A stretch of 64,000 nt of DNA, taken from positions 395,309-459,308 of the forward strand of contig CAJINV010000015.1 in assembly GCA_905178155.1 (NCBI GenBank), in the 5' to 3' direction. Origin of the DNA: Amoebophrya sp. A120 (taxonomy: Eukaryota; Protista; Dinoflagellata). The notes beneath the pieces were generated by a model. That model had not been told where the DNA came from and did no database searches. It saw only the letters and a list, made by a program, of their open reading frames with translations. The position numbers were made by a program, and so were the translations under genes. Below, one piece after another: positions 2,507 to 56,875 of the stretch. Numbering within the stretch: the first letter of the stretch is position 1; each line of letters opens with the position of its first letter.

Positions 2507-5500
2507 TTACCGACACTGGTACTCCTTATCCGGGACGCCCGGCCAGGAGACCCCTGAAACCTCCTCGTAACAATTATCGAATGCAAATATATGTCTGGGT
2601 CGTCTGGAAAAGCAGCGCGAGATCTCTCATGCAGCTTTTGCCCGACCCGGATCTTCGTCGGGCATGGCAGACCTAGCATCACAGATTGATAATGATTTCG
2701 AGCAGGTCTCCAAATGTTGCCTAATGCGCCCCTCTTTCGGTATACAGAACAAATGCGCCCCTCTTGCTGGCCATGCATGGCAGATTTTGTCATGATCTAG
2801 AATAGTTCGCATGACAAATTGCGATGCTCCTTTCAGACCCAGACTACATATTTGCCATGCATAGCAGTTGGCTGCGAACCACTTCCGCTCCTTCCAGTCC
2901 TCCATGTAGTTCCGCCCGTTGAGGTGGCGGGGGATTCCGGGCGGCAGCGGCTCGGTGCCACCGTGGCTCCATCCGCCGCCCGCGCGAGTGCCCGACCAGA
3001 CCTTTTTTACCACGGCGAGCTTATCGATCTCTGGGTCATTCTATCAAATGTAAAAATGTCTGGGTCTGGAAGAGTGCAAGTTTGTCATGCTTGTCTGGCA
3101 TGACTCTGAAATCTGTCATGCACATTACTGAAGAGCCCCACTTTTCTGTCATGCAGAAACGTATTTTGTCATGCAGAATAGGCAACACCTAGAAGCTCAG
3201 AAACTTGTCATGCTGAGCCAGCAATTGTCGCCTCCTCATGATATGCCACACAGCATCACAAGTTTCCAGACCCAGACATTTTTACATTTGATACATTCCC
3301 CGGAAGGGAATAGGCGATTTCGTGGTTGGGAAGCCAGTGGTTTAGTCCGTTGAAGACCAGAAACGCTGCGTCGCCCGGGCCCCCCTGGAGCTGTGAACAC
3401 TCCCACTTTCCGAAAACATCGCCTTTTTTCCGCCGCGCTTGTCGTTCGAAAATCCACTCCGCAGAGTCGATATCCTGTGCAAAAGTATCGTACTCGTAGT
3501 AATTGCATTTATGCATTACCAATTTCTTTCTCAAGGCAAATCAGCATTACAAATTTAATTTGTAGTGCTGGGCTAATTTGTATTTGTAATGCAATTTATA
3601 TATACTAGTACGATGCTTTTGCAGTTCATAGTCGAGGAGACCAGCGAGGTTTGAAGACGTCGAATTGCTGCTCGGAGGTCGTGCACTAGTCTGTGCACGG
3701 TTTGAAAGATCAGAACCCTGCTGACGCTGTGTACTAGAGGAAGTCTGTGTCTGCCCCCCGGCGCTTCGAAACAACGTCCTTCGCGTAGTACTTCCGGCCA
3801 GTGGTTGGTGCCGCGTGAGGGTGGCCTGCTGCAATACCTGTGGCATTTTTGTCACCTTCGCGGTTCTTGGGTCTGCGCGAAGTAAGGAGATGTAGAGGCC
3901 TATCGGCCCCGTGGTATCCCACACGGTGTTTCCGTAGGCGTGCAATTCCACGCGACGGAATATGTGGTAGATCATGTCCCCGAGGAGTAAGTTCAAAGGC
4001 TTCGCCGCGATGAAAGCGTTCATCAAGCCTTGTAATGAGGAGTCTTGATTCGGCCACTTGGGCAACTGCTTGATAGCCGGAAACGATTCGAAAAAATAAG
4101 GGTCTTTGACCCCAAACGAAAACGTGAAGTCCTGGCAGGCGAAGATGACTCCAATGTCGTCCTTGTTTTGCATTTTTTCCTCCGCAACGACCGTGCCCGT
4201 GACCGGGTCTCTCGTCTCTTTTCTTGGGGACCGGAACTTTTCCGTCCCGGAAAACGCCATCTCCAACAGCTTGTCCCAGCCGACGAGCGGGGCGAGCTTC
4301 CAGTCCATGTATACCCCCCCTTCCCGGTACAGGACTAGCAAGCGGAACAAATCGGATTTCATGGTGTAGATATCGAACGCATCGAATGCCCAGAGCATCT
4401 CCTTTTTGTAATGCTCCTGCAGGTACTCTCTGGCCGCATTCAGGTTGAAGAACTTCACTTCAAACTCCTTTCCCGGTCCCGCGTTCAACTTGGCCCACTG
4501 CGCAAACCCTTGTGTTTTCTCCGGATCCCGCCAGTTCTGATACCGCAGAAACTCGTCCAAAGTCACATCCTTTTCGTCAAAAAACGCTGTGAGAATCAGA
4601 GTTCGCGGAATTTTCGTCTGGACAGGAGGTGCGGGAGGTGGTGGTGTAGTTCCACTTCCAGGTGGAGCTGCAGATGGAGCAACACCAATATTTTTTTTGT
4701 AGAAATTCCTTTCCACGTCATCAATCGAGGCTTGGGTCAAAAAGCCGTGGTATTTCTCGTGCATCATCCCCACTGGATCCTTAACGTTTTCTAAGTCCTC
4801 GGTTGGCCACACCCCCGGGCCATCTTTGTAGTCGATTTTCTCGTGGCGGACGCGGTGTTTCTGCAGGTTCTGTCGTGGAGAGCCGCCCAGCAGGTTCTGT
4901 CGTGGAGAGCCGCCCTGCAGGTTCTGTCGTGGAGAGCCGCCACCGCCATCGTCGCCACCGCTATCGCCACCACCGCCATCTTCGGGACCACCGCCATCAC
5001 CACCACCGCCATCTTCAGGACCACCGCCATCACCGCCACCGCCACCACCGTCATCGCCACCACCGTCATCGCCACCACCGCCACCGCCACCACCGCCCCC
5101 GCCGTTAAATGGCCACCCCCATTCTCGATTCGAAACGCATTCTCCTTTTCTCCTCCATCTCGTGTACCAAGATTCACTCCAACCGTCGAACCAGGGAACG
5201 AAAATCAAAACGCAAGCACCGCCTCCTGCGAGGACGAGAAATAGGAGGAGAAGGATGAGCACGACGCAGTTTTTTGTGCAGGAGCACTGGCAACAGCCCC
5301 CGCGGGACGAGGGGGTTGTTTCATCAACATGCTCCATCTCCTGTTCCTGATCTGCTGCACCTCCAGCATCTTCAACGTGTCCCACCGCGTTCGACGTCGC
5401 ATTAGTATCCACTAGGACAACTTCATCTCCCGCACTCAGCAGTAGAGCCGCATTCTCGTTCCGGGCGGCCGCAGGGGGGTAGTACGTGGAGATCGAGTTT

Positions 5501-5562
5501 TCAACATCTCCTGCGGGAGCCTCCATTCTGGGTCGTGGATCATCTCCACGACGGGGCACCAT
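2507..5562 (-). CDS. Type II membrane glycosyltransferase, GT32/DXD sugar-binding (OCH1-like) family; 3 introner introns
   Basis: TM helix, Gly/Asp stem, then KIPR..., KSDLFRLLVLYREGGVYMD, NAFIAA and TTGP motifs. Frame restored by removing 3471-3630, 3042-3293 and 2575-2863, each plus 5 nt. Start and 3' end are approximate. Confidence 0.85.
2575..2863. mobile_element. Introner family A (TIR TATCAAATGYAAAWRTGTCTGGGTCTGGAA)
   Basis: TIRs; diverged DR acaat/gcagt. Confidence 0.8.
3042..3293. mobile_element. Introner family A
   Basis: TIRs; DR cattc. Confidence 0.92.
3471..3630. mobile_element. Introner family B (TIR TAT....TGCAAAAGTATCGTACT.GTA)
   Basis: TIRs; DR gtcga. Confidence 0.92.
4862..5100 (-). 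repeat. Coding 27-nt tandem repeat x3 (GGSPRQNLx) plus Gly/Asp codon repeats
   Basis: ggttctgtcgtggagagccgcc x3; only one unit in the paralogue. Confidence 0.85.
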
Positions 5563-7237
5563 GGCGCCTTGACGTCGTTCCACCTTTTCCTCGTCGCCGC
5601 TCCGTGTTCTGGCGGCTGGTTGTGGTACTATGTATAAGTGGTTGGTCAAAGGATTATGTGTCGCTTCTAGGTAGAAAATTTATTTCCTTGTTATTGTCGT
5701 CCGCAAAGTGCACAGTATGCAAGAAAAAAACTGTGTAAGTAAGTGTAAGTTTCTAGCAGTTACTGCTAGATGAAACTTTCTTCGCAGATCGCTGCGAAAC
5801 CTTGGAAGGAAGAACTTTTAAGACTTTTTTACAATAAATTTTTAGTTTATGGTAAATCATGCTGGATTAGCTTTCACCATGTATCAGTAAACATTGGCGG
5901 TTTTAGCAGCGTCTCAGTTTCGGTTTCGAAAAATCAAATCCGGACGAAAAGAGAAATGCTCCTGCGCACAAATTTATTTTTTGGTTTTTATTTCCTCCAA
6001 AATGTCAATTTGTATTGCCGCTGCCAATTAGCATCAACAGCGGGGCAGTGATGTCATGATCCCAATTTTTTCAGCAGCTGCGCCAGTACGCGTACTCCGT
6101 GAGCATTCAGCGCGATTCGTGATCAGTTTTCTACTATTTCCCCCGAAGATCATGAGTGAAGATCCATTTTTTTTGTACGTGATCCATTAAGTTCTATCGT
6201 AGTGATCCATTTCTAATTCTATTCTCAATAGTGATAGTCTGTCTCACGACGGCACCGAGAGAACTTTTCCTTGCCTCCAGCAAGTAGAGAGAAGCAGAGA
6301 GCAGTTTGTTCCTTGAGAAGACTTTTCGATCTTGATTTTGTTCTCGAAGTCGCAATCCCCAGTGGTAAGTAGATACAAATAACTGACTATGACAACAACG
6401 AGCAGGAAATTGTCACCTGCCTCAGTCGTGGTCGTGCTTGATTTCTATATATTTATTTCTTTACGTCTTTAGTGAGCAAGTGCAAACAAGGCTTGATCTT
6501 CGTGCTGTGGCCAAATTACGGAAAGCGGAAAAGAAAAAGCGCCCCCTGCGATTGGCGAAATGCGATTTCTTTCAAAAAGAACAGAAAAGTTGGAATCCTC
6601 TTCCTGCCTTTGTATCGACGCGTTCATTCCTATGTACCTATTTCGTGAGCAACCACGTATCGACAGCTGGTCCCTTATGCGCGAAGATTTTTCTTGTCGT
6701 GATAGTACAACAGGTATCAATAAAGATATATAAAACTTGATGTTGTAGCAGCTGATGGTGATGACACAATGCGCATGCGGTGCCGCTTCGCGGTTCATCT
6801 GCGCCGTGCCGCTTCGCGGTTCATCTGGTGTGGTGGTGCAGGTCAATTCAATGCAGTCCTGGTTTTAGAATGTCAGTCTAGAATGTTTTTGCACTGATTA
6901 ATTTGCTTTTGAAAAACAAAAACTTTTAAAAACGAGAAGAGGTGTTGATACAACATATATAATGCGATCTACAGGAGCTTGAAATTCCTGCGACGATAGA
7001 TCGATCGAGGCTCGTCTTTGCCTCAACTTACATGTTATCTGGACAAGAATACAACTGTAGACCTTGTCCTGGCATTGGGATATACTAGGGTCTCTACGAA
7101 AAACGGCCTGGGAGTGGTGCGAGTGTTGAAATCATGCGCATATTTTACAACAATCGCGAATAAATTGTTGTTTTTCCTCACACTGAAGCAGTGCTCGGTC
7201 TCGTCACAGCGAGGGCAAATAAGTCCGATTTCCTTAC

Positions 7238-10200
7238 TATCCTGGAGGAGGAACTTCTTGATGTAGAAGTTCTTGCACAGGCCTATCCGATATCAAATGC
7301 AAATATGTCTGGGTCCGGAAGGCTGCCAGGTTTGTCATGCAAATCCTGTATGATCCATGACGCCGGCGTTAATGCATGGTCTAGCATCACAGATTTTTAG
7401 AGGGCTTCCTAATGCGTGCCCCGCATGAGAAATGCCCTCTTCGCGTAGGACAAGCCCGACCCTTCTTGCTGGTCATGCAATGCAAATTTTTTTACAATCC
7501 AAAGACAGCATTACATACAAATTGCAACCTTCCAGACCCAGACATTTTTGCATTTGATATCAGCACTGCTCACCACGTTACTGCAGTCGTGCCAATATGA
7601 AATGCAAAAGCATTGCACTTCTAGTATAAATCACATGACAAATTGAAATTAGCCCAGCATTACATCAAATTGAATTTGTAGTGCTGATTTACCTTGAGGA
7701 AGAAATTTGTGATGCATAAATGCAATTACTACGAGTACAATACTTTTGCAGTGGATAGCCAGGCCTGGTAAAATTCATCCTCATCTCCCCCGTCTACTGC
7801 TCCGCGAATCGCAGCGCGAACTGATATGCCATCGTTTCCCTGCCGTACGAGCCACAAAACCATGGCTCGCAACAACGGGCTGAGCATCGTGAAAGGGTGA
7901 AGGAGGGTGAGGGTTTTCTGAAGTTCGTAAGCCTGCTGCGGCGGGATCGGGAAAGGGTCGTTTTGACCATGATCGTGGCGGGCCCCTCGTTGCTTGGATC
8001 TTCTCCGTGTGGGGTCGTTACTAGGTGGACCCACATCTTCCATATTTTGTACTGTCTGCTCTTCAGGATCAGGAATTTCAGCTTTTTCAGCAAGATCGTG
8101 CCTACTGTGAAACACTTGTTCACCTCGTCCAAGGGAAGCAGCACCTTCATCTGCTGCATCTGGCGGCGGGGCCGCTTGTGTTGATCCGGAAGACCTAGTA
8201 GTTTTCGCGTCACGGATAGAAGTTTTTAACTTCGCGTTCTCCCATACCCCGAGTAGGACCCCTTCTATCGGCTGGGTGTGAACGGGAAAGCAGGTTGATA
8301 AGTCCTCGCTGGAAGTAGTATCCTCATGCTCATCTTTCAGCAGATATTCTTCCATGCTCAGGAGAACGCCGACGCCTCCACTTCTGCCATCTTCAAAACC
8401 TTCAAAACTAGTCGTTTCCTCTGTGTAGTCGACATGTTCCTGCGCAGGATGGCACGACCACAGGCGCTCCTGGCAAAAGAACATGGCGTCATCTACTGCG
8501 CCCGCCCCGCCGGGAACGTATTGGTTATTTTCATCATCTAACGGCGGGGTTTCTCCTTGCTCCACCTCCGCGTCGAAGCGGCCATGTCGTTGCCCTCTAT
8601 CCTCCGTCTTGCCCACCAAGAACTGTCGGGAGGTCCGCCGTGGTCGTCCGCCAGCAGACTTTTCTCCTTGTTCTATCCTGAGTAAAAACGTCCCCACACC
8701 AGAGTTGTAATGCAGATTTGCGTAGACAGGAAGACTTGTAATGCGCATCCCCATGAGAGCCATTTCCAATCGTGTATTGGAATTTGTGATGCTGTGAACA
8801 GGATGAGCAGATGAATCTGTGATGCGGCTGCAATTGCTAACCTGCACTACACTGCGGAGTGCAACTTGTCATGCGTGACTCACAAAACTCCTAGGTTTGT
8901 GTTGCAAAATCCCCATCCTGACTCTGGTGTGGGTACGTTTTTACTCAGGATATGTTCCACGCACCGCCGCGGCAGAAACTGGAAATCCAGAAACCCATTC
9001 GGCCTGCTATGGTGTTCTCAAACGTTACATTCTCAACTGTTACATGAATTTGTAATGCAAGACTAGTTCAGGTAAGAGGGAGAATCTTGCGCGTCTTGCA
9101 TTACAGGTTTGGTGCGGACTACAGTGCTATTTAGCCCTCCGAGAACTTGTCATGCGAAGCAGCTTGATCGTCTGGCGGGTCGTGGTCATTTTGCATGACA
9201 AATCATGTAACAGTTGAGAATGTAACGTTTGAGAACCCCATACCTGCAGGTGGATGAGGATCTTCTTCTCGTTGATCTGTTTTCAAGGAAGACGCTGCGT
9301 TTCGGTTCATCCTGGGAAGTAGATTATGCATTGCAAAAGTATCGTACTAGTATAGATGCATTACAAATTTTCTCAGCATGAGAAATAAAATTTGTAATGC
9401 TGATTTGCCTTGACAAAAAAATTTGTAATGCAAGACTTGCATTTATACGAGTACGATACTTTTGCACAGGATATAGATCTTTCATGTGCAAAAGCCGCGA
9501 CTTTCTGGCAGTCTTCGATTCTTCTATCCAACTCCGTGTTGAAGTGAACAACGTAGAGCGCGTATCAATCGTAAATATGTCATCTGGGTTTGGAAACTTG
9601 TGATGCTAGTTTGTGAATTGATGTGGGGGCACTCCTGTTTATTTTGAGTGTGTGACACGACACTGCAATACGCCACCACGCATGACAAGTTTTTGAGCTC
9701 CTCCGTGTTTTGCTTTCCGCATGGCATCAAACTGCGTTTATTTTGCACCACAGCAACGAGGCTTTTTAATATTTCCTGCTCGTGCATCTGCATTTTTACA
9801 GACATAACAGTCATGTGAGGCAAGCAGGACAAGCTTGCGTTCTTCCAGACCCAGACAACAGGTTTGCATTTGATAGCGCGGAGTAGAACAACAGTGTGCC
9901 CAGAAAAAATTGTTTACTTTTGGAATTGCTGGTCTGGATTTTCTTGTTCATTTTTTCCCTGTGGGCGACCCGCAAATGTTCTTTGCGCACAGTCGCTGCA
10001 GTTTCCTTCTTCGCGTCCCTTCTCGCTTTGTTCCTCGCTGCAGCGGCTGTCAGCTGGGAATTTATTTTTGCACCAGATGACCTGATGTTATTGTGCTGTT
10101 GCTGTGTCGGCTGTACCTGCTGTAGCAGCTTCGGGGTTCTTGTCTCCTGGTCGTGAATATCAAATGCAAATATGTCTGGGTCTGGAAGATTTCTAGATTT

Positions 10201-13200
10201 GTCATGCATATTTTCCATGACCCATGACGTCTGTGATGCATGCCGTAGCATCACAGGCTTTTAGAGACCCTCCTGATGCCTATTCCGCATGAGAAATACC
10301 CTCTCCGCGTAACACAAACTGGACTCCTGTTGCTTGTCATGCAATACAGACTTTTTCGGAATTCAAAAACAGCATTACAAGTTCCAACCTTCCAGACCCA
10401 GACATTTTTACATTTGATAGTGAACATTGGGGGCTCGTGCTGAAGACGAGTCGGGGGCAGAGCTAGATATAACCTGCTCAGGTGTTACAATCTCAAACGT
10501 TACAATAGAATCTTGAATTTGTGTTGCAAGAAGTGCGTTATCTGTCCAACTCTCATAGGATTGCGCATGACAAGTTCTGGAGTCCCAATCCGCACTACAA
10601 TCTGGCGAAATTTGTATTGCAGAAAGTGGAATGCTGTCGGAATCTGTCATGCTCATCATGCAATACAAAACCCAGACTCTATTGTAACGTTTGAGATTGT
10701 AACGTTTGAGCAGGTCATACTAGAGCTACCGATTTTCCATTTCACAAACGCTTGCAGCGTCTCCATGATGAAGTGCTGATTCCCGCTTGCACTTGCTCCC
10801 TGCTCTCTACAATTTCTGGGACCACCACACGGCGAGGAGATTATAGTTCGTGCGGTACTGTCACTAGAAGGCGCGGCTCCTGAACCAGCTGGACTTCGTC
10901 CAGGTTTTGCTCCTCCTAACAAGTTGTCCATTGTTCCGTTGAAGAACATGGCGACCAGCTTTCTGGCCCAATGGGTGAAAAAGTGCTTCAGTTTTGCGAT
11001 CATCTGGCTCAACACATACCATTTTCGCTTCTGATTTCCATTTTTGCACCGGGTCGTGTCGTCCGCATTGGGATTTGGTCCTCCGCCCGTTCTGTTCGCA
11101 TAGATGAACCGATCCAACGCTCGGAAAAGCATCTGCTTCAACTGGAACAGCAAACGCAGAACCTTCTTTGCCCGAGAGATGTGAAAGAGTTTTTGAGCGT
11201 ACAGCCCGTGGCGCGACGATGGAACCGTCCTCGTGCTGGAAGGTGGTTCTCTTGCAGATCGATGTTCCAGATAATTATCCACGTGAGCCGCAGCCCTAAT
11301 ACTTGCAGCCGCGGCCCCTTGTTGTGCTGACGAGACGGGTAGAGGTTTTGCCCTCTCCTGCTCCTCTGCGAGGCGCTTTAAGGTTTCCGCAATGTGTTTT
11401 TTTCTCCTCTTCCCTCGGCCAGTAACAGAGTCTGGGCCGAAGTAGCCACGCGGAATCTCTTCGCCGCCGTCAATGAGGGGAAATCTCGCTTTGGAATGCC
11501 GCCTCCGCGTATCAAATGCAAAGAGACTTTGACTTGTCATGCACTTTTTGCGTGAGCCATGATGTCTGTGATGCATGCCGTAGCATCACAGATTTTTTTT
11601 TCGAGGGGTTCTTGATGCCTATTTCGCATGACAAATGCCCTATCCGCGTAGCAAAAATTACATTCCCTTTGGTGCTACTCATGCAATACAGATTTTTTTG
11701 GAATCCAAATGCAGCATCACAAGTTGCATGCTTCCAGACCCAGATGACATTTTTGCATTTGATACCGCGCAGCGTGGTCCAGCTTGGCCTGCTTTTTTGC
11801 CTCCGCAACCCGCTCCTGCGTTTCCGCTGGGGAGAGATAGGCAGGCTGCGGTTCTTGTGAGGCTGCTTTTGGCCCCCGGTCATCAACAGCAACGGTGGCT
11901 CCTGCACCCGGTCCTCTTGGCGGTGGATCTGCCACGAAACCCGGTCGTGCTTGTTTATCCCTTGGGACCTGAAGTCGCGGACCTAGGCTCCTAAGTTTTT
12001 CCCGGGCGGATGCGAAAGTCGACGTTCTCGGCTGCGCAGCGGCAGTGGCGGAATCTTCGCCCGAAGAAGTCGTGGTGGGAGAGGCGGCGAACGAAGACGC
12101 TGATACACTTTGCTGGCCGCACGACCTTATGAAATGCGAAAGCATCGTACTAGTATAAAAATAAATCGCATGACAAATTCCCTCAGCATGAGAAAGATGT
12201 AATGCGGATTTACCTTAAGAAAAATATTTGTAATGCATGATTGCAATACGAGTACGATACTTTTGCACAGGATAGACCTGTCGTCCAGTTTCGCTAGGCT
12301 CATATGCCACGGGACCGTCTTGCTCCGCTGTAGGCCGCCCTTGGCAGACTTATTTCCTGCTAATTGTTCATCTAGGGCGCTGCTGGTGCCATCGCCAGCA
12401 CCGTGTTTTTGTTTCATCGCAGCAAAATTTTTACCACCAACTACACCGAGGCACAAGGGGCTGTTGCCTCGCATCAAGGGCCTAAACCCTAAGCCCCCTT
12501 CTTCCTCGTCTTTCGTTTCATCATTTTCACTCGGGAGGACGATAGAACTTCTATCTCGCAGTAGCTCCAGCTTACTCAGCATCCGCATGTCGTCTGCCAG
12601 TGTCAGCATGTCGTTTGGTACGGGTGTAGGAGAAACTTTCTTATGCACATCGTCGAAAGAAGATGAAGAACCAGCAATACTGCATTCGCCGAGCTCTTCG
12701 TCGTCGCCAACATCGGAAAATGATGATGAGGACGATGGGGACGAGAGATTTGAGGAGTCCTGCAACAGGAACTCCAGAGCGGAAAGATCCTGCGGAGTTG
12801 TACGCTGAAAATTTGCTCGGCTGGCTACCGACGGATTGAATTCGATCTTCTCGGTCTTGACGCTCCCATCCTCGGCCTCGTCGAAGGTAACACGACGCTC
12901 CCGGGGGTCCTGTTGTACTGCGAGACTGTTCGAAGAACAGGAAGCATAGGATCCTGACGTACTTGAACCAGCACCAGAACCTTCTCGTTTCAGAATCGAT
13001 GGCTTGTTCATTGTCGTTCTAGCAGCAGCAGCAGCAGCGGGCCCTCGTCCAACATTATTAGGCTGCAAAAGCCTACAAGAACTACCCGGTTGACCAGCGA
13101 ACGATGCTTCTGCAGGACGGCGCGCTGCTTGATGTTCTTGTGCCTCCGTGTGCTTTTTCAGGAGTTTCTGTAGCTGGTCCGCCCACTGAACATCTGTAGC

Positions 13201-25890: not shown

Positions 25891-28800
25891 TCAAACTCCA
25901 CGCGACCCCCAGCAGGTCAGCCTGATCTCACTGCTCGCCCGGACCGGCAGCGTGCAGTAGTCGACCGACAAAACCCGGGTCTCGATTGACTCCCGCTCCG
26001 TCCCCATGTTCGTAATGTCGGTGACCGCAGTGTGATAGACGTTAAATGTGGAAAACAGCAAAGTTTCCGCGAACTCCATGCCCGGCCGGACGTACCACTT
26101 CATATTGTCGGCTTGCCCCTGGGAAAGTTCGTCCTCGTTCAAGAATCTTTGGGAATGCGCGCCCGTCGCGTTGAGCGGAATGGAGGACGGGTCCAGAACC
26201 GCGAGCGGGTACTTGATCGCGAACGGCTTCGATAAATCCTTATCAGCAGGCCTTGTTACGTTCATCCACAAGTTGTAAGCGTCATGCACTCTGACGCGGG
26301 ACCAGAAGCATCCCCACTTCGCGAGCGTGTGTTCCTTCAGCAGATTTCCGTCCAGCAGCTTGGTAAAAAAAGCCTCGACCGTGGACCAGTCCGGGGCCAT
26401 TGCAAACACCGCGTCGCCGAAGCCCCTGCCCCACGCGGGCAGTGTGGAATTTAGAACGTTTATTCTGCGGGCGATTCTTATGGATGTGTCAGAGTTGAAA
26501 TCGACAAAGTTGAAATAATTTGTCATGCATAAAATGGGTGCCAGTTGGAACCCACTTTCTAAGTGGCGCATGACAAATTTCGGCGGTCCCTAAATCCAGT
26601 TTGTCATGCTGTTTAGGCAAAGAAGAGCGATTTTCTTATGCTACTTTAGCAGCTCGAGCTGTAACCCCAAACAGGCTTACAATCGGCTCTGCAACACACG
26701 TGCCTCGGGTGATGCATTTTATGCATTACAGATTATTTCAACTTTGACGATTTCAAACCTGACGCTTCCATAATTCTCCGGAAGAGCGTTTCCAACTCCT
26801 CCACAAAGGCCGCCGCGGTTTGCGAAGTGGGCAAAGCGCCCTTTTTATCAAATGTAAAAATGTTTGGGTCTGGAAACTTGTGATGCTGTGTGGCATATCA
26901 TGAGGAGGCCACAATTGCTGGCTCAGCATGACAAGCTTCTGAGCTTCTAGGTGTTCCCTATTCTGCATGACAAACTACGTTTCTGCATGACAGAAAAGTG
27001 GGGCTCTTTGGTAATGTGCATGACAGATTTAAGAGTCATGCCAGATAAGCATGACAAACTTGCATTCTTCCAGACCCAGACATTTTTACATTTGATACTT
27101 TTCCCAGCGTCCCAAAAGCGTCAAGTACCCGACGGCAATAACTCTGTCGGTTGGGTGTGATCTTACGGTCGGTGTGCTGTGAGCACCGACCACATGCGGG
27201 GTGGGCGCGACATATTTCGCCACGTGCTCGAGGTCCGAATCGGTCAAGTTGCAAGTTGCCTTTGCGACATCGTTCACAAGGTCGCCCGATTCTAGTAGTG
27301 GCTTCAGCAACGGCGCCTGCAGTCCGGACGCCAGCAAAACGGAGAAGTATCCCAGCACGGAGAATCTTCCGCCGTAGCTCATGTTGGTATGAACTGCAAA
27401 AATATCGCACTCGTAGTAATTGCTTTTATGCATGACATCGGTGATCTACGGGCAGGCTCAGGCTGTCAGTCCCGGCGGCGCTTTTGGCCCTATGTACAGA
27501 GAGAACAAAAATAAAAACAAGTGTAGGTAGACATACATGTGAAAGATTTATTGAGGAAAATATATAACTGAAAGAAGACGAAAGTCGTATATGCAGCACT
27601 AAAGCCACTCTTACGGGCATGGTCACGATTGGGCTTTAGTGGGTAGTGCTCCTACGATCTGTTACACTTCTATCAGCTGGTCAAGTACGAGGAAAACGAG
27701 AGCAGCATTGAAGAAGGGAAAGGCGCGCGCGCAGGCCAGCCCAGCAGCAGCAAAAAATCAAGACAAGAAGCAGACTACTGCCACCCGGGGTCCTACCCGA
27801 CCGAAAACTGTACCGGTATGGGCCAACATACCACAAAAAGCACCGAAGCAGGGTAGGTGCTCGCGTAAAGAGAAAGGTGCCCAAACCTGCAGCGCCCGAG
27901 GGTGCATGCTCACCACTGTAGGATAATCTCTTTACCGTCTGCCAGCGGACAAGCCGCTGAAAGGCAAGGATGAAGCGCAAAGCAAAAAACAGGTAGGACA
28001 AATTCACTTCCTACAGATTTCAAGGATGAAGCGCAAAGCAAAAAACAGGTAGGATGGAGCCAGCAGGCCAACCGCATGACAAATTCACTTCCTACAGATT
28101 TCATTAATTTCATTTGTAATGCTGAGCTAAAAAGTTGTAATGCGATTCATACTAGAAGTGCGATGCTTTTGCCTTTCATAGTTGGGCAGGTCCGGCAACA
28201 ATTTCCAGAACGGCTTCACCTCCTCCGAAAGGCCCTGCATGGTCACATCGGTGTGCACGAAGGTCAGCGGCACTATCCCGTTGACCACGATCTTCGCGGT
28301 GGCGGAGCGGTGCCGACTGTCCACGATCACAGTGGCGCGCTTCAAGTTCGCGGCTGCGACCGCAGTTTGCAGCTTGTCAAACAAAGCCCTGAAGCTCTTT
28401 CGATTCGCGGCCGCGTCCTTCTCCAAGCTCGCGCTCGGTGCTTGCCACCCATTGACTCCATCCTTGGCGGTTTGGTCCAAGTTCGCGACTTTTGCAGCGT
28501 ATGTCAGCTGCTCGTTCCAGATTTTGTGCGACAGATTCGTCTCCTCCTGGTTTAGATTCGGGGCACTCGGCGTCAACTTTTCGACGATTTTCTGAGTAAC
28601 CAGAGTGCGCCACGTGGTGGAGTCCGGTAGCGTGCGCAACTTGTCGGCCGGCCAATTCTCCAGCAATTTCCGAAATGAGGTGGCCTGCTGAGGAGCTCCT
28701 TCCGCCGGGTCTTGTTGTTGGCTGAAGTCCTCCGGCTGAATAAAGGCGTAGCCCTTGGTTTGGTACTGGCTCACCGCCTGCTTTCTTTTTTCCTCATCCA

Positions 28801-29212
28801 GCAAGCTGAAAGGCTGCCCGTTCAGCGTCATGCTGGTCATACGCTGGGTCTTTGGGTCGAAAGCCGGATCGTAGTTCTCATCCACTTTGCGTGGGGGCTT
28901 CAAGTTGATCTGCACCCGCTCCTGCTGGCCCGCGAGGTTGTTCCACTCCGGCTCGGCTTCCTTATTCCAGACGAACAGGTAGAGAAGCAGGAGGGCTAAT
29001 CCGAGAACGAGAACCATAGAAACTACGATAATGATCGTGGTGATCAAACAACAACTCTTCTTCTTCTTCTCCTCCTCCTCAGCCCTTTGGAGGCTGGAAT
29101 CATCAGCAGGATAGACCAGAGGCTCGCGCTCTCCTTGTTGTTCATAGTGCCCGGGGGGCCCAGCCGGTTGCTGGTGGGCATAGACGACCTGGCTGCCTGG
29201 ATGGACGGACAT
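25891..29212 (-). CDS. Membrane-anchored AsaB/CmcJ/NvfI-like (putative Fe/2OG-type) oxidoreductase; 3 introner introns
   Basis: N-terminal TM; FVHTD (HxD), YNLWMN, YPLAVLD, KWYV.PGM...LLF, YHTAV and RESIETR motifs typical of this family; frame restored across 27388-28180, 26846-27097 and 26479-26772. Confidence 0.7.
26479..26772. mobile_element. Introner family F
   Basis: TIRs; DR attct. Confidence 0.9.
26846..27097. mobile_element. Introner family A
   Basis: TIRs; DR ctttt. Confidence 0.92.
27388..28180. mobile_element. Introner family B expanded by an internal insertion of about 644 nt
   Basis: B-type TIRs at both ends; DR gttgg; removal gives DLPN|MSYGG in frame. Confidence 0.85.
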
Positions 29213-31575: not shown

Positions 31576-31858
31576 ATAACGAGAATAGCTGTCGAGTAGC
31601 TAGATATTTTCAAAGTCATTCGCTAGCTGTTAAAAGTAGGTACTTGTTTCCATTCTATTTACTGTGCTATTAGCACAATGAGCTAGCTAGTCTGAATGCT
31701 GTCGCGGATGCGTCGACGCATCCGTGACAGCATTCCTACTAGCTACGTATATTAAATATCTATTCCGCACCTGAAAAGGTGGCATTGAAAGCATGCTTTT
31801 TTGAAAGCTAGCTAATGACTTTGGAAATTCTTAGCTACTCGACAGTTATTCTCGTTAT
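31576..31858. mobile_element. Intergenic foldback/MITE with TIRs of about 55 nt and a central 42-nt palindrome
   Basis: ataacgagaatagctgtcgagtagcta...tagctactcgacagttattctcgttat; centre gaatgctgtcgcggatgcgtcgacgcatccgtgacagcattc (31694-31735). Confidence 0.8.
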
Positions 31859-35406: not shown

Positions 35407-38400
35407 TTAGATTTCTTGAACAACAACCCCAGTCGAACTGCTTCCGAAAGAAGTACTCTCTTCTTTCTCGTCCCTGCTTGAAGATGTGGCTTTCGTTACC
35501 CTGTCACCGCCACCACCTACCCTTCCCGTCCGCAGCAACACCACCGCCAGGTAGCCCCAAACCATCATATCCTGTGCAAAAGTGTCTGGGTCTGGGAGAT
35601 TCCGAGACCTGTCATGCAGATTTTCCATTATCCATGTCGTCTGGAATGCAGCACCTAGCATGACAGATTCTGTGAGATCCCTATTATGCCTATCCTGCGT
35701 GAGAAACTCCCTGCCAACTTGGTCGAAAGTGGACAGCTTCTGGCACTCATGCAACACAGATGCTTGCATGATCCAGAATTAGCATGACAAGTTGCAACCT
35801 TCCAGACCCAGGCATATTTGCAATCCATACATCACTGCGCCGAGCAACATGGTGCTAGAAAACCCCGAAACTTTCCGCAACCACGCGCCGAGCAATATGG
35901 CGTTCTCAACTGTTACATTCTCAACTGTTACATGAAGTTGTGATGCAAGAATGGCACAGGTGAGAGGGAGAACCTTGCGCGTCTTGCAATACAGATTTGG
36001 TGCGGATTCTAGTGCTATTTAGCTCTCTGAGAATTTGTCATGCGAAGCAGCTTCATCATCTGGCGCCTGCGCCTCATGGTCAGTTTGCATGACAAATCAT
36101 GGAACGGCTGAGAATGTAACGTTTGAGAACCCCATAAGCAACGGCCCAATAATCAAGCCGAGCTGGGTGAAAATGTTGAACAAAGCGACGACCTGTTCCG
36201 TCACGGACTCGGTGTTTGTGTTGTTGGTGTTTTCGGATTTTTGCATAGGTTGCCCGTCTTGCAAGTTGTGGATTCCGCTATCCTGCGTTTGCTTCATGGC
36301 AGGAAGCGTTGGCACGAGTAGCAACGCCTGTCCCAGACCGAGGAGGACCAAAATCACCGCTTCAATAACTGTGCACTCTTGTAGTTCATCAGTCGACGTT
36401 CTTCTTTCGTCACTTCTTCCCTCGCCCAGCAGAACTGAGTGATACAGCCCCAGCAGCAGCAAGCAAAACCCGGACACCCCCGCGCCCAGCTTCAGGCTCC
36501 GGAGATACAGTTTCTCCCGGTCCGCAATGGTGCCCGCCGGAACGCCGCAGAGACTGTAGGAGATGGAAAGAATGGCGTACATGTAGCCGATTTGGAGGAC
36601 GTCTAGATGGAGAAATTGCTTCGCGTGAATCGCGTAGATGGGCTCAACCAGGCCGAAAACGAAGGTTCCGAGAAAAAGAAAACCGGCCGGAATCAGTATC
36701 CTGCGCAAAAATGTCCCCACCTCCCCATAGTCAAGTTGGTAAATCTGCAACACAAATCCCCAAAGTTTTGGGAGTTGTGCATGACAAGTTTCCATCTGCA
36801 GTGTAGTGGTGGTTGGCAACGGAAGCCGCATGACAAGGCCACCTTCGTTCTCATCCTGTTTACAGCATGACAAGCTCCAAAACAAGATATGGAAATGACT
36901 CTCATGGAGATGCGCATTACAAATGTTGCACTGTCGTTGCACATTTGCATGACAACTCTGGGGTGGGGACGTTTTTACTCAGGATAATCAGGATTGCGAA
37001 GTTGTCTTTTGCGAGCACAGAGTAGAGGTTGATGTTAGACGTCGTGGCTTCCTCCTCCTTAGTAATCTTATCCGCGTTCTTGGTGTACGAAGGAGTACGA
37101 GTAGGAGTCTGTGCTGCTTGTTCTTGCTCCACGTTCTTGGCGTCCACTTTGGCTTTCGCTAATGGAGGTTGGACGAGGCTGTTATCTTTATTCCCCGGCT
37201 CCGGCTGCACCAGACTTCGATTTAATATTTTCCGGTTGCTCCTACTTCCCAGCTCAAACCACGCGAGCAAAACCACGACCGGGACCGCGACAAACAGCAT
37301 CAAGCATCCCGACACCAAAAACGGGCAAGAAAACGAGCCCCCGATGAGTTCTAGCCAGGACCCGATCGGCGGCCCGCAAGAGAACCCAACGCCGATAATA
37401 ACTTCGTTTCACCTATCCACAGTAAATCAAAATTTCCCACACGACACGACGATGTACAAATGCGGTTTCTGGATTTGACAAAAGTTTCGTTCAATCCTCA
37501 ACTTAATACTTGACGAAAAAATATATTTGTAGTGCATATTTTGCACATGCACGTTGTGTGCAGCAGGAAATCAAAATTTGTATTGCGTATAACCCCATGA
37601 CCAATCCCAGGTCGTCCACAAACCGGTCGGCCACCATACTGAAGATTGCGAGATTCGAAAACGCTTGGCCGATCCCACCAAGCAACCTTGTAAAAATCTG
37701 GAGGTAAAGGACAAATTCCGGGTTGGAAGCAAACCAGATCGGCGTGTAGCCGAACAAAATCGCGGAGAGCCCCTGCAGCAAGAGACCGAAGAGAAGAATC
37801 GTAATGCGGGTTTTTGTCGTGGAACTGGTGTAGTTGCTCTTCGTGGTTTTCATCTGCGCGTCGACAAGATCCTTGCCTGTTCTTTCGGTGGTAGAAGTGG
37901 TAGAAACCGTAGATGTACTAGTTTCATCTTCACTGTTCTTACTACTAGATGAATTTTTCGCCGCAATTTTTTCGCTGATCACCGGGGTGAAGAGCAAAAC
38001 CGCAACGGAGTAGACCGCAAACACCGACCCAACCCACGTGACGTCGATGTTTAACTTAGCATACTCCGCGGGGAGGATCGGCGCGATCTATGCATTGCAA
38101 ATATGTCTGTGTCTGGAACAAGATTCCGACATTTGTAATGCAGTTTTTCCAAGCAACCCCAGGTCTGGAATGCAGAGCCTAGCATCACAGATTCATTGCG
38201 CAGCCTCTTGGTCTTGGTGATGCCCATCCTGCATGAGAAATGCCCTTTCAACATCAGCATGGCCAGAAGTGGGCACCTTTATTTGCATGCCATGCATCAC
38301 AGATCTTTGTATGATCCGCAACACGCATCACAAGTTCGGATCCTTCCAGACATCCAGACATATTTGCATTTGATACGATCAGGCTGCACACGATGTTCGA

Positions 38401-43708: not shown

Positions 43709-44199
43709 CTGCAGCTAGTCCGTGTCTGCTTTCAGTGGAAGGCTCCGACGTTCTTGAAAACCTGTACTTTGAAAGCCTTTACTTTAAAGTCGATTTCTGC
43801 AAATTAGCCAGCGTTCGCTGCTTCACCATTCTGTGCGAAAAATCCGAAAAGTGCGCCTTTTCCTGTTTGAGGCGGGGCACGGCAGGCCACGGCCGGCGCC
43901 GCCTCGCTCGGGCCTGAGACGAAAACTAACCTCGCATCGATTTTTGGAAATTGGCGAGCGTCTGGAGCGGCACTTTGTGCGAAAAATCCGAAAAATGCAC
44001 CTATTCTTGTTTGAGGTGGGGCGGGCGCGGCTGCCGCGCCCTACAATTTGAACAGCGTCGTGAACTTGTCATGCACGTGCTGTATTTCATCTGGGGGTAG
44101 TTAGGAGAGCTACTCGCTGTTGGGTTGCAGCTGTAGTTAGTAGAAGTAGATTTCCCTGCAGCTAGTCCGTGTCTGTTTTCACTGGAAGGCTCCGACGTT
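43709..44199. repeat. Dispersed repeat with two units of about 140 nt, bracketed by direct repeats of about 43 nt
   Basis: ctgcagctagtccgtgtctg.tttca.tggaaggctccgacgtt at about 43709 and 44156; units and tail match 53135-53830. Confidence 0.75.
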
Positions 44200-44727: not shown

Positions 44728-47700
44728 CTACGCCCAAACCGACCTCCCCTCGCGGTCACCCGGCTTGAAGGATATCGCACGAAATAAAACTCTGGTCTTT
44801 CGTCTTCACTGTGACAATTGCTTTCTTTTGGTATTTCATGACGTCGCACATGACAAGCCTGCTCTTGCGCATAAAACCAAAAATCTGTCATGCGTGCAGT
44901 TTGAATAGCGGAAAAAGACAACAGGCAGAGGGACGAATAAATCCTGCTGTGCAGCTCGTGCTTTATTTATTCCAGCATGCAAGACAAACTACACACCATA
45001 TCTCGGCTTGCATCTGCAACTGCCTCATCTTCAACACACGTGCACAGTGAACAAGGAGCAGACGTTCTTTTTTCCTGCGATACAAGAGAAACCCATATCA
45101 AATGCAAAAGTGTCTGGGTCTGGAAGGTTGCGAGATTTGTCATGCTTGTCTGGCATGACCAAAAAGTTTGTGATGCGTGTCCAAGAAGAGACCCTTTTGC
45201 CTTACATGCAAAAACGAAGCTGGTAATGCGAAAAACGCAACACAAAGAGGCGCAGATATTTCTCATGCTTGACTGTGCATTACAGAGCATTCACTATTCC
45301 CAACGCAGCACTACAAGTTTCCAGACCCCGACATTCTTACATTTGATAACCCACGGCGTTATCCCGGAGCCCGCGGTTCCAGCCACCCATGCGGACGCGC
45401 ATACCCTGATGTAGTTAATTTCGCGGTTCCTACGCATGATAGCGAATCCTCGTCATAGACACAATGCTCACACAAAATGAAGCTGGAAGCCGTTTTCTCA
45501 AATTACTGTATTATTCAAAAAGTTTATTTCTTGTTTTAATAATAAAATACGTCCTGCTGCTTGCCTTGTCCTTTACCCTTGCCCTTTCCTCCCTTTCCCT
45601 TGCCCTTAAAGCCCTTGCTGTTTGCCGTGACGATTCCCATACCGCTATCCTGTGTAAAAACGTCCCCACCCCAGAGTCGTCATTCAATTCTGCATGCTGA
45701 AGATGTTTCTCATGCGGAGCCCCATGAGAAGGATTTTCTAATCGTGTTTCGGAATTTGTCATGCTCCAATCAGCACGATGTGCTAGATGCTAGTGAACTG
45801 GCTAAACAGGATTACACTCCGAGACCAAACTTGTCATGCGCAACAGCCAAGCCTTGTGGATTTGTCTAGCAGATTTTCCATCTTGACTCTGGGGTGGGAC
45901 GTTTTTCCACAGGATAACCGCCCTTCTGACGGGGGGCGTTCGCGTATCGTGTGCGATTAAAGTGTCGGACGTCTTCGCTGTAGATGTCACGGAAGCCGCC
46001 CTCGCCTTTGTTCTGCCCTCGGTTGTTGCCATAACCTGTCAACGATTTGTGATGCGGGAAACGCGTTGTCTCGTGCGTACTTACTTTAGCATGCGGAACT
46101 ACATTCATAGTAAGTAGACGATTTCTATGTCGTCCAACGCAGGACAGATCCAGATCCAGCATGACAGATTGAATGCTTCAGTTTCAATAACTTCTTGGTG
46201 AATTTGTCATGCAATTTGCAGTACTAGTACTAGTTACGTACCTTGTCCTCCCTGTCCGCCCTCCATATTTTTCTGGTAATGCCCAGTCTTGTATCACGAT
46301 GGACAACTTCCCCTAGATCTGGCTTCCAATTTTTTCTTGTCATGCGAAATTACAATTACAGCACTAGCCTTTGCTTTCAAGGCCTGCAGTACAAGCTGCA
46401 GTACCACTTCAAACAAGACAAGGAGTGCTACAGTCTGTTCCTAGAGAAAAAAATTTCGTCATTATTCAAAAACTACGATTGAATTTGTGCTGCTGTGTCG
46501 CTTCGCATCAGATCTGAATCAAGCGGGATCGTCGAGAAGGAGTTGTCCTCTGTCATAACTTGTAGTCGACCGCCCGCTCGTGCTGGTCCAGCCCGTAACT
46601 GCACTTGTCTGCCAGGGTCAACGCCAGCCGCTGAAAATTGGTTTGCGAGTCCTCGGGTCGGACGATGAGGATGGAACTGGTCTTGTCCCAGGCAAAGGGT
46701 ACTTCCTGGTCGTTTATGCTTTGCAAAAAGATCATCGTACTAGTACAAAATTGCATGACAAATTTTGCCAAGAAGGAAAGTGGAATTTGTAATGCTGTTT
46801 TGCCCTAGCAAAATAAATATTTGCCATGCATATTTGCAATTAGTACGAGTACGATACTTTTGCACAGGATACCGTTGATCATGCGGCTGCAAATGCTGTG
46901 GATCTTCTCCTTCTATGAACTGCAAAAGTATCGCACTCGTATAAATGCATTACAAATTTCCTTAGCATGAGAGATAAAATTTGTAATGCTGATTTACCTT
47001 AAAAGACAGATTTGTGATGCAAGACTTGCATTTATACGAATGCGATACTTTTGCAGAGGATACCTTCGGTAGTTCGAACATTTCCGTCAACTTATCGCAC
47101 GGAAAAATCCCCCCTCTCTTTATCGAAAATGCACACCTGAGAAAATTTGTGATGCTTACTTATGGCCGCAAATTGTGTCTGTCTTGCAAGAAAGCAACGG
47201 CAAAGGCTCTGCCCCATTATGCAGGCGATTTGTAATGCTACTCGGCCTAGTACAGTGTAGACGCTCCTCATGCTTAAGTGCTTAGGCCACAACCTCTCTA
47301 CATTGGCATGATATGGGCCTGCAGTCCCCTAGTGCAAGACAAATCTGATTTGTGTACGCAAATCCAGCATCGGAAATTTCGGTTTGATGTGGGGACGAGG
47401 GGGGATTTTTCATTTTAATACAACTGCTTCAGGTCCAACGACTCGTAGCTGCTGGAATGCTTTAAACAGTAGCACCGGATGGCCTGCTCCTTCACCAATT
47501 GTTCCAGCAACTTCATGTCGATCAAGTCCGGCAGAAACTGCACCTTTGCCAGGTGCTGGTGCACGGCCGACTTCCAGTCCCCACGCATGACCGCCAGGGC
47601 CGTATGAAAGTGCACAACTCCTCCCCCCCTCATTTATGAAGCAAGAACGGCAATACAACCGTCAGCAAGAATGCTGTTTTTGCATGACGAATTTGCACAA

Positions 47701-50700
47701 TAGTGTAGTACTGTTCCGGAGTAGTTTGTCATGCAAACAGTGCCAAGGAACACACAGCCTGGATTTGGTGTTTTGCATGACAAATGAGGGTCGTGAGGGG
47801 GAATTGTGCACTTTCATAGGCCGCGTGCAGGATGTATTCTCGGGTCGTTTCCGGTGGGGTTTGGAACACATGCTTCTCCATCTGGTCCAAGTGCTATGAG
47901 AGTGCTCAACTCCTCCTCCCCCTCATTTGAAGGGCATGGATGAGTAGCATTACAAGCAGCTGCAGAAATGTGCCTTCCACATGACAAATCTCTTCTGCTT
48001 CTGCACACGGATTGTAGTACTGTTTCAGGTTCTGGTTCCAAAATTTGTCATGCACGCAGTGCTGAAAGGCAAGATGTGGATTTCTTTTCTTGCATGCCAA
48101 ATCATGTAAGTATCTATGAGGGGGGCGGTTGTAGTGCACTCTCATAAATGCTTTCTCAAGGCTCGGGAGATCAGCCGCCGGTGGCCGGGGTTGATATGAA
48201 ATGCAAAAGCATCGCACTCGTAGTAATTGCTGTCATGCATTACAAATCTTTTTGACAAGCGAAATCCGCATTACAAATTTTATTTCTCATGCTGAGGAAA
48301 TTTGTTACGAGTACGATACTACTTTTGCAATGCATAGTTGAGCTGCTGCAACAGCATGTTCGGCACCTCCAGCAAAAGTGCGGTCACCAAATGCGCAGCG
48401 TCCAGGTGGTCCAGCGGAATGTGCATGTGGTAGGGTAACTGCCTCCGTCTCTCCGTCTTTTCCTGCTCCGGGTTCCGTTCGTTAAAGCGCTGGAACGCGA
48501 CGCCCTGTGCCAGCAGCTCTTTGGACTTGTTGTAGGTGCACAGCTCCATGAGGTAGTGGTGCGCCTCGGGAATCAGGCCCATCCGGAAGGCACACAGACC
48601 TGGTTGACGTGGGAGTCGGAGTTTGTAGTCGCAATATTGTAATATCGACATGCTCGTGACCACACGTCGCACCCAAGCTTTATATATTCCATCTTGCAGT
48701 AGACTACATGTTCTTACGGAACTAGATACCGAGCTAAATCGCCCGAGTAAATCCAACATTGGCCGCCAGCTGCACTTCAGATTATTTTCAACGGGATCAA
48801 ATTCAAAGAGACACACCTTCCATTTTGGACCCCTGTTGGATTAGCTGGCGCATGCGGCCAAAGCGGAAAGCACAATCAAAGCGATTTTGCAAAATTGGCC
48901 AGCGTCCAGCCGTGATGAAATGCGTGCAAAAAATGAAAAATCACTATTTTCATGGCTGAGGACCGGTGGGTACTTAGTGGGCACAGGCGGCTGAGACGAA
49001 AAGAAATTTTAGGCCAATTTTGAAAAAATGGCGAGCGTCCAACATTATAAATTGCCCGAGAAAAATGGCAAGTCACTGCTTCCACGGCTGAGAACCGGCG
49101 GGTAGCGGGCGCAGGTAGCTTGAGCACGACAAAGAAATAAAAGCGATTTTGGATAAATGGCCAGCATTGCAAGGAATAAACGAAAAGAGATAAAGGGAAG
49201 GACGGGAAAACGAAAAATAACGCTTGCTGTGGCTGAGGACGGATTCGAATTCGTGACCGAGGACTTCTACATGAGAAACTTTTACGCAATCCCCAACAAG
49301 ATACATTAGAAGAACCCCCTCACAACTTCAACTATCTTTGGAGTTCTCGTCGTTCTTCAAAGTCTCATAGATACTTACACTGCAAGGTGTCGCACTCGTA
49401 TATATTTTATGCATTACAAATTTCCTCAGCATGAGAAATAAAATTTGTAATGCGGATTTACCTTAAGAGAAAGAGTTGTAATGCATGATTGCAATACCAA
49501 TACCTGTCTGCGCGAATGCGCGGTTGTAAAGAATCTGGGTGTGGGTTTCCACTTCCAACGAGCGCTCGTACATGGTCATGTAGTGCAACGTGTCCCGCGC
49601 AGCCCGAAACTGGTTGTGCAGGGCTTTGTGGTAGGCCCGGCAGAGTTCCGCACGTAAAACAAACACCTTCTCCGTGATCTGCCCCTCGCAGCCGGTCTCG
49701 ATAATGTCGCACAGCGTGTCGATGAGGTCGAAGGATTCGCCCGGCTCGGAAAATCCCCAGGATCCGAGCACGGAAGGTTCTGATAAAGTTTTTTGAATTT
49801 GTTGGCGGGATCTTGAACTTGTGATCCTCTCATGTTGGATGTTGTCTGCAGCTGCTCAAGGTCACTTGTTCCCTTACAAATTGTAGATAATTCTACCTCG
49901 TCCTACTAGTAGAACAAGGTGCAACGTACAGAGCGTTGTTTTTACGCGACGGCTTTTGCATGAAGATATAGCGGAAAAAAGATGAAAAGTTCAACTTGTG
50001 CGAATACTTTCAAACACGTCCATTCCCAACTCGGACTTCATGAAGTCGATGCAGATTTTGTTGTCGGTATGGAGAGAGAAAAGCTCATGCTCGAGTCGCA
50101 GCCAGTCAGTCTGACTATCGCAGGTTTTCTTGAATGCGAGATTTTCGTGGTAGCCTACACAGGTCTTTCTGGTATGGCAGTAACATCGCACAGAAATTTG
50201 ACTGCGATGCTTTGTTATGAGTGACACAATGGTTTTTGGTATATGCTGCAGCAACATTGCCGATGAGTGATCGCGCAGAGCGTTTTCTCCTTTGATACTC
50301 CGAATCCTGCTTGTAGTAAATGTGCTCCAACAATCGCGCCGCCGTTTTGCTCAGGTCCACGCCCTGCTCTTGCGATTTCATCTCGCCCTCGTGCTCCACC
50401 ATGTATTCCGTCAGGTCCTTCAGGAACAAAATCTGCTTGCAGGACGCGACTAAGTAGTCCTGCATTTCCTTGGTCGAAAACTGCAACGCCTTGAACAGCT
50501 CATCATCCAAGCGGAACACAGACAGGAGGAAGGTGCGCCAGAGTGTGTTCTTCGTGAACGTGTCATCCTGATCGTCGTCAGCTGTCGTTTATGTTGTATT
50601 GGGAATTACGCATGACAGATCTGGTATGATTATGTTGTATTGGGAATTACGCATGACAGATCTGGTATGCTTACGCATTTGCGCATCACAAAAAATTCTA

Positions 50701-56731: not shown

Positions 56732-56875
56732 CACTCCGTTAACCAGACCTATGGGTACCCAGAGGTCGTGTTTATCGCGAGATGTTTTTGGATTTTTGGC
56801 TGCAGACCCAAAAATCCAAAAACAGCTCGCGATAAACAGAACCTCTGGGTACCCCGAGGTCTGGTTAACGGAGTG
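56732..56875. repeat. Near-perfect intergenic palindrome/hairpin of about 144 nt
   Basis: cactccgttaaccagacct..gggtacccagaggt...acctctgggtaccc..aggtctggttaacggagtg. Confidence 0.9.

Follow-up and report, generated by a model that had tools for sequence, protein, structure and literature searches.

The 64,000-nucleotide (nt) stretch of Amoebophrya sp. A120 analysed here (the window; contig CAJINV010000015.1, positions 395,309 to 459,308) carries short repeats with inverted ends, the introner elements of this organism, which are removed in either orientation from the transcripts of the genes they interrupt. We found that one asymmetric cut register, in which the intron takes one base outside the element's 5' end and four bases outside its 3' end (N-TAT...ATA-NNNN), fits all informative junctions, and that changes in the element ends follow the direction of transcription 13:0. 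Together, the asymmetric cut and the polar end changes argue on sequence grounds that recognition is polar, with palindromic ends that would supply the signals whichever way the element lies.

The repeats match A120 introners as published. In the passages covered, Farhat et al. 2021 (PMC7789003) describe inverted ends in which TAT is followed by seven less strict bases and then AAA, flanking direct repeats 3-5 bases long and a mean length of about 240 nt, and report RNA-supported removal of these introners and long blocks of co-oriented genes. The window elements come from the same organism and share this anatomy: end logos read TAT, seven bases and an A run, and the borders carry a 5-base-pair (bp) target duplication, within the 3-5 bases of the published direct repeats. 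They occur as repeat copies, are lost from RNA-like contigs and have borders other than GT-AG, the three further traits of A120 introners. Having terminal inverted repeats (TIRs) and a target duplication, and being short, non-coding and dispersed, they also resemble miniature inverted-repeat transposable elements. Strict elements (exact 5-bp duplication, TAT...ATA and inverted ends) number 47 in the window and 0 in each of 20 block shuffles. The search gave 62 candidates, from which the weak ones at 13356, 31605 and 56133 were dropped and to which others were added by eye or on RNA or protein evidence, leaving 62-65 elements.

Clustering yielded six families, each present in both orientations in the window (A 6:16, B 3:12, C 2:2, D 3:1, G 2:2, F 1:1), with 3 of 100 edges inconsistent in family A. 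Element lengths range from 137 to 1094 nt, interiors are unlike between families except for a short motif, and the duplicated sequence is without bias. A general orientation bias, suggested by the window ratios of A and B, did not recur in 180 elements outside the window (A 45:59, p=0.20; B 11:9); family G stood at 1:8 there, p=0.04 uncorrected. The end types TATCAAATG, TATGCATTG, TATCCTGTG and TATGAACTG recur in families A and B and are often unequal within one copy, and such mismatches look like exchange of ends. A pattern scan placed the same element families in 154 loci (L001-L154) of one metagenome assembly, with up to 97.6% identity to the copy at 3042 (L119); the unique DNA of the window had no match among these loci, in which long open reading frames (ORFs) are also present.

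A sequence-only reading of this DNA had singled out copies lying as reverse complements of one another in host genes that all run on the minus strand, and blastn bore out every pair. The copy at 3042-3293 is the reverse complement of 26846-27097 at 96.0% and of 21400-21651 at 91.3%, 45095-45348 that of 60656-60909 at 90.6%, and 35575-35829 that of 51186-51449 at 78.0%; the closer partner of 35568 is 51537-51794, at 81.5%. Global identities in reverse and forward alignment are 0.96/0.66, 0.91/0.65, 0.91/0.63 and 0.77/0.60 for the four pairs, and because reverse identity is well above forward, orientation can be read from the element interior. The peptide shared with position 3171 on the plus strand does exist, but it belongs to a spurious ORF within the element. 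Of 61 elements checked for host strand, 41 received a call, always minus, and 20 received none; the 9 Pfam matches among 34 pieces scanned all fell on minus pieces, 33 of the 34 pieces given being minus. The named elements, with the family C copies that bear on the internal motif, are as follows.

3042..3293, family A, plus: 30-bp perfect inverted ends, duplication GAATG (sense); intron by the rule 3038-3294, 257 nt; missing in public protein P0005, RNA evidence indirect (X1 record).
21400..21651, family A, opposite to 3042 (91%): intron by the rule 21396-21652; basis blastn and ORF restoration.
26846..27097, family A, opposite to 3042 (96%): intron by the rule 26842-27098; 257 nt missing in public protein P0007.
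45096..45348, family A, plus, in eIF3c: intron 45092-45349; skipped by contigs of all four runs and in public protein P0001.
60656..60908, family A, opposite to 45096 (91%), in an aminotransferase gene: length 3n with one stop-free frame; basis blastn, ORF and Pfam.
35568..35829, family A, minus, in an MFS transporter gene: lost together with 35896, sum 513/513 nt, in X2 and X3 contigs.
51186..51456, family A, plus: 5' end TAC, not TAT; 276 nt missing in P0001.
36697..36986, family C: motif on the antisense strand only; removed.
45646..45916, family C, opposite to 36697: motif on the sense strand only; removed.

Removal itself was an assumption of the sequence-only reading; the evidence for it comes from RNA-like contigs and public proteins. 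The contigs of runs X1 to X4 stem from one sample and their RNA nature is a guess by the tool, while the kind of X5 is not on record, its flat depth of 41-47 being DNA-like. At least 27 elements are missing to the base from X1-X4 contigs, and the missing length equals the element plus 5 bases in every check, singly or as sums over neighbours. Both orientations are removed in these contigs in family A (45096 versus 7291, 9563, 10158 and 35568), family B (48195 versus seven others), family C (8674 and 45646 versus 36697) and family D (9008 and 35896 versus 42219). Public proteins likewise lack elements, both 3042 (P0005) and its reversed copy 26846 (P0007) as well as 51186, 51537 and 54452 (P0001), so the claim of removal in either orientation is supported on both counts. 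P0001 (eIF3c) and P0005 match the window exons at 100%, and both are labelled Amoebophrya sp. A120.

One X1-X4 record skips elements and GT-AG introns alike, which marks these contigs as mRNA, and their depth differs between genes. X5 contigs enter the elements from unique flanks by about 28-65 bases at the depth of unique DNA; the ciliate-type pattern, an element missing from the bulk template DNA, was not found. Because X5 contigs keep the elements that X1-X4 contigs skip, removal takes place at the RNA level, contrary to the DNA-level mechanism that the sequence-only reading had allowed. Deleting each element plus 5 bases in silico produced long minus-strand frames of 831, 1840, 737, 332 and 622 amino acids; deletions of the element length plus 2, plus 8 or plus 5 bases restore frames alike (53, 52 and 53 of 62 elements), so the ORF test fixes the removed length modulo 3 only. 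Among the joints listed there is none for 3042 or 21400; the latter adjoins an X1 bin of depth 0.4, which holds no sign of retention. The raw RNA runs X8 and X9 put just 6 and 3 reads on the window.

A single register, in which four duplication bases stay in the upstream exon (k=4), fits 8 of 8 RNA-informative junctions, namely those where the two duplication copies differ: 7291, 7596 and 15978 at piece ends, and 44773, 46292, 46715, 47895 and 50068 at joints. Spliced by this rule at 21 element introns and 7 GT-AG introns, eIF3c equals P0001 with 0 differences, whereas the five alternative registers leave 1-4 differences. Introns that the inverted-repeat search had missed (44773, 50068, 51939 and a nested one of 1099 nt) fall under the rule too, and intron 51935-52196 obeys it with just 8 of 15 end positions paired. 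The passages of Farhat et al. (PMC7789003) report no clear splice signature, and the legend to their Fig. 3 calls the borders variable or unknown, whereas one fixed register was found here; since the first base and the last four bases of each intron are target DNA, the rule accounts for the absence of a dinucleotide signature in that report. Borders under this register are GT-AG in 3 of 64 elements. The GT/GC...AG of U2-type introns is missing from the elements, which are therefore not filed as canonical U2 introns, though we read them as working like them. A drift of the +1 base towards G was rejected: G is gained at 3 of 5 unequal duplications inside the window, but outside it 2 of 5 change the opposite way and none gains G.

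Two long elements were also seen. A family A copy (52791-53047) lies within the final bases of an outer element 1094 nt long (52787-53880; duplication TCTGA, internal tandem repeats); all 1099 nt (52783-53881) are missing in P0001 under the same cut rule, and ordered, twintron-like removal is possible. Related tandem repeats of about 143 bases occur inside this nested intron (53136-53836) and in intergenic DNA (43790-44155). A 793-nt element with B-like ends and a CCAAC duplication (27388-28180) accounts for 798 nt missing in P0007.

Polarity was read from the ends themselves. Outside the window 261 elements were found, and the coding model that had called all 41 window strands correctly, with 20 no-calls, assigned a host strand to 180 of them; the other 81, 4 with deviant ends, were left out. 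With 64 window elements this made a pool of 244 strand-assigned elements; it does not include 19831, which lies outside any ORF and is altered at the middle base. In this pool, changes affecting the first or third end base follow transcript direction 13:0 (flip test, p=0.00024): 7 fall at 5' +4 (TAC, TAA) and 6 at the last A of ATA, with 0 at 5' +2 and 0 at A(-7), the A seven bases before the 3' cut. The 5' bases +2T and +3A are never altered and A(-7) is invariant in 245 of 245. The 13 changes come from no fewer than five families or singletons and, in A and B, from both orientations. Further inside the ends, positions 5-16 do not differ between the 5' and 3' sides (position 4 gives p=0.048, uncorrected). 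The sequence-only reading held that recognition uses only symmetric features; the needed features do lie in the symmetric ends, but the cut is asymmetric and the end mutations are directional.

The tolerated 5' bases are also those of the host's canonical introns. All 28 eIF3c introns start N-T-A, 19 of the element introns with NTAT and 2 with NTAC, and the canonical ones with GTAT (four), GTAA (two) or GTAC (one), so that positions +2 to +4 match between the classes (NTAT/NTAC/NTAA versus GTAT/GTAC/GTAA; 7 canonical introns only). Wobble pairing in a stem runs counter to this pattern: G-U wobble would allow loss of A(-7) and disfavour 5' TAC, the opposite of what is seen, and while wobble could account for the 3' ATG cases it predicts the opposite at the third pair.

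We consider it probable that a relaxed U2-type spliceosome uses A(-7) as branch point and places the 3' cut a set distance from it, without an AG. N|UA(U/C/A) would then be the organism's normal 5' splice site with the +1 G relaxed, the invariant A(-7) the candidate branch adenosine, and the 3' cut would be set by distance from that A. Because the ends are mirror images of one sequence, a 5' site and a branch site would be on offer whichever way the element lies; the modelled stem may help by pairing the inverted ends and so drawing the splice sites together, and loss of one duplication copy would restore the original coding sequence. The sequence-only reading had reasoned from the strand-specific nature of spliceosomal signals towards a structure-guided or DNA-level mechanism, an argument that does not carry here: a palindromic end shows the same 5' and 3' sequence both ways, so orientation independence does not exclude a spliceosome. 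In the passages of Farhat et al. (PMC7789003), A120 has nearly all spliceosomal proteins and the U2, U4, U5 and U6 small nuclear RNAs (snRNAs), with snRNP27 and U1 snRNA undetected. Partial coverage of other systems supplies parallels: SNRNP27K loss goes with +4U in yeasts (PMC10581693), short fixed branch-to-AG distances occur in Yarrowia, Trichomonas and Giardia (PMC2483917), and TIR-derived non-canonical introns of Fritillaria are spliced by the U2 spliceosome (bioRxiv 2025.08.15.670264; PMC13326754). A bolder version, which we put forward tentatively, is a spliceosome needing neither +1 G nor 3' AG that would read UA at +2/+3 and the branch A(-7), both at the foot of a terminal stem replacing the undetected U1 snRNA.

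Several observations weigh against this mechanism or the evidence beneath it. The +1 G and terminal AG are near-invariant in other spliceosomes. Here G stands at +1 in 22 of 64 window elements and 56 of 180 outside, no preference over flanks of about 31% G, and introns end in AG in 19 of 180 cases with 21 expected, no enrichment. A(-7) is present in 4 of 7 canonical introns and so is not fixed there, its sequence context varies (TTTGATA, ATGCATA, CAGGATA), and in many elements the predicted stem pairs it with +4U. Each element yields bounds on the cut, and the register is singled out on the condition that the same rule applies throughout; the eight RNA-informative elements include no copy with a plus family label, so the fit makes no comparison between orientations. 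The contigs behind the junctions are one sample with a guessed RNA identity and cannot reveal splicing efficiency or retention, and the public proteins are not independent of RNA, because they may rest on related RNA data. The proposed mechanism as a whole draws on sequence, contigs and public proteins.

The internal motif GCAT(G/T/C)A(C/G)A occurs 225 times in 14.9 kb of elements and 30 times in 49 kb outside. These bidirectional octamers, proposed in the sequence-only reading as a signal, are not supported in that role: family C, whose arrays point one way, is lost in both orientations, and 50068 is removed without an exact copy. A branch point in the motif was rejected on the same family C arrays and on counts of 108 sense and 117 antisense copies, and the sense-strand motif is missing in 24 of 180 elements and in the removed 36697. 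Spacing between same-direction copies is mostly 31-33 or 39 bases, which would suit a protein site on double-stranded DNA, for example a transposase site. A longer form, GCAT(G/T/C)A(C/G)AAATT, is common to nearly all families on both strands, in the window and in L001-L154. The GT-AG introns 46036-46241, 48600-49503, 50582-50703 and 52604-52734 contain either the motif of the elements or a degenerate copy of family B, and may be old elements turned canonical.

Folding predicts terminal stems for either strand; mean pairing across the first 15 bases exceeds 0.5 in 60 of 64 and 59 of 64 elements. There is no wobble bias of G-U versus A-C (31:33 and 96:110) and no sense-strand stability bias, and selection on an RNA stem left no trace in those counts. 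In six removed elements (35568, 40740, 41574, 42049, 46914 and 47093) the predicted pairing of terminal TAT with ATA does not exceed 0.1. Long single-copy palindromes without TAT...ATA ends lie at 31576-31858 and 56700-56907, the inner part of the latter having CAC...GTG ends.

Such stems could instead be the target of a non-spliceosomal protein endonuclease and ligase that bind the stem of the inverted ends and the terminal UA/A bases and cut with the 1/4 offset, which we judge unlikely. Stem prediction on both strands fits this account, as do cuts with neither G nor AG bias, the undetected U1 snRNA (passages of Farhat et al., PMC7789003) and the structure-guided removal proposed for euglenozoan non-canonical introns (passages of PMC12621601); an enzyme on a stem would also be polar, so the offset is compatible with it. 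It is opposed by the lack of wobble or sense-strand stability bias, by the six removed elements with terminal pairing of 0.1 or less, by 51935-52196 with its 8 of 15 paired positions, and by 5' tolerance that matches canonical GTA(T/C/A). Less likely still, removal could be spliceosomal with a branch further upstream, A(-7) being a protein contact or stem-foot mark that sets the 3' cut. The 5' end evidence serves this account equally, a T-run is conserved at about -15 to -19 in the 3' end, and canonical introns lack the fixed -7 A; against it, no upstream motif is found on the sense strand of both orientations, and the sole shared motif is the one missing in 24 of 180 elements and in 36697.

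In group II introns the branch A lies 7-8 bases before the 3' end, and the invariant A(-7) and predicted RNA folding would suit self-splicing ribozymes. We hold this to be very improbable: Rfam gave no match in the window at gathering score, families of 137-1094 nt share just a short motif, and the antisense strand of a ribozyme would be inactive, yet both orientations are removed. Excision from DNA in the manner of ciliate internal eliminated sequences, yielding element-free templates, is largely refuted and hardly credible, for although the anatomy is transposon-like, X1-X4 are not on record as RNA and rare empty sites are conceivable (the X5 evidence being the joints listed), X5 contigs run into elements at unique-DNA depth 41-47, X1-X4 contigs skip GT-AG introns too with depth varying by gene, and register and end conservation track transcript direction.

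The host genes, all on the minus strand, are these.

2510..5679, minus: glycosyltransferase gene (PF04488) hosting the elements at 2575, 3042 and 3471.
7240..15132, minus: 1840-amino-acid stop-free frame once 10 elements are removed, 8 of them missing from one RNA-like contig (441/441 and 1520/1520 nt).
21329..24297, minus: 737-amino-acid ORF once 21400, 21879 and 22247 are removed.
25894..29212, minus: gene of P0007 (655 amino acids), with introns 26479 and 26846 and the 798-nt element.
44731..55556, minus: eIF3c gene, the register test case, with 21 N-TA(T/C)...ATA-NNNN introns and 7 GT-AG introns.

No homologue of exon 25894-26478 came up in a search restricted by length, and a wider one led to P0007. 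In eIF3c an 8-base exon (45084-45091) between two element introns is kept in contigs of all four runs. Gene duplication is also seen: 1-1388 and 4686-6232 form a tandem glycosyltransferase pair (PF04488; paralogues P0002-P0004), and 14590-15502 and 17498-18884 are partial duplicates of the start of the 1840-amino-acid gene.

The A120 elements themselves are already known, as are two-way introners elsewhere. Passages on Polarella glacialis and Aureococcus anophagefferens describe TIR DNA-transposon introners that are intronic in either orientation and, as here, combine bases of the element end with duplicated ones at the splice sites (Roy et al., bioRxiv 2020.10.14.339549; Huff 2016 as cited there); those introners use G(T/C/A)...AG sites and biased targets, whereas A120 has an unbiased duplication and needs neither +1 G nor AG. 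Fritillaria borealis, in the parts covered, has fixed end dinucleotides such as AG-AN (bioRxiv 2025.08.15.670264; PMC13326754), while the terminal intron bases of A120 are free and come from the duplication. Non-canonical introns of euglenids and diplonemids (passages of PMC12621601) likewise have paired ends, short direct repeats and an open mechanism, but the ends in A120 follow a directional sequence rule in agreement with the canonical 5' site of the host. The 3' end of introns in Yarrowia, Trichomonas and Giardia lies 2-4 bases past the branch motif plus AG (passages of PMC2483917), which by our arithmetic gives the branch A an offset of roughly -6 to -8; these species keep a strong CTAAC motif and AG, in contrast to the one invariant A and no AG of A120.

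Element orientation, fixed register and branch point receive no treatment in the text of PMC7789003, figures aside, as far as its passages were covered. Orientation, the fixed register and the polar end rule for A120 were not found in the literature searched (passages of PMC7789003, PMC11282704, bioRxiv 2022.06.06.494994, PMC12130899, PMC11453091, PMC12005148 and PMC12621601), of which figures, supplements and subscription papers may hold part. The single register for all informative junctions and the transcript-polar end rule (13:0) thus appear to be new, within the papers searched.

How more than 60% of introns are removed in Amoebophrya A25, whose element ends begin with TTA, and A120 has been a question since 2021, and the single register and polar end rule make it directly testable. 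If the proposed mechanism is true, any TAT...ATA transposon with a 5-base duplication would be a perfect intron wherever and however it inserted, one rule would explain tens of thousands of 'signature-free' introns, and A120 gene models could be corrected by it. The GT-AG pairing at the second step of the spliceosome would then be dispensable genome-wide in a living eukaryote.

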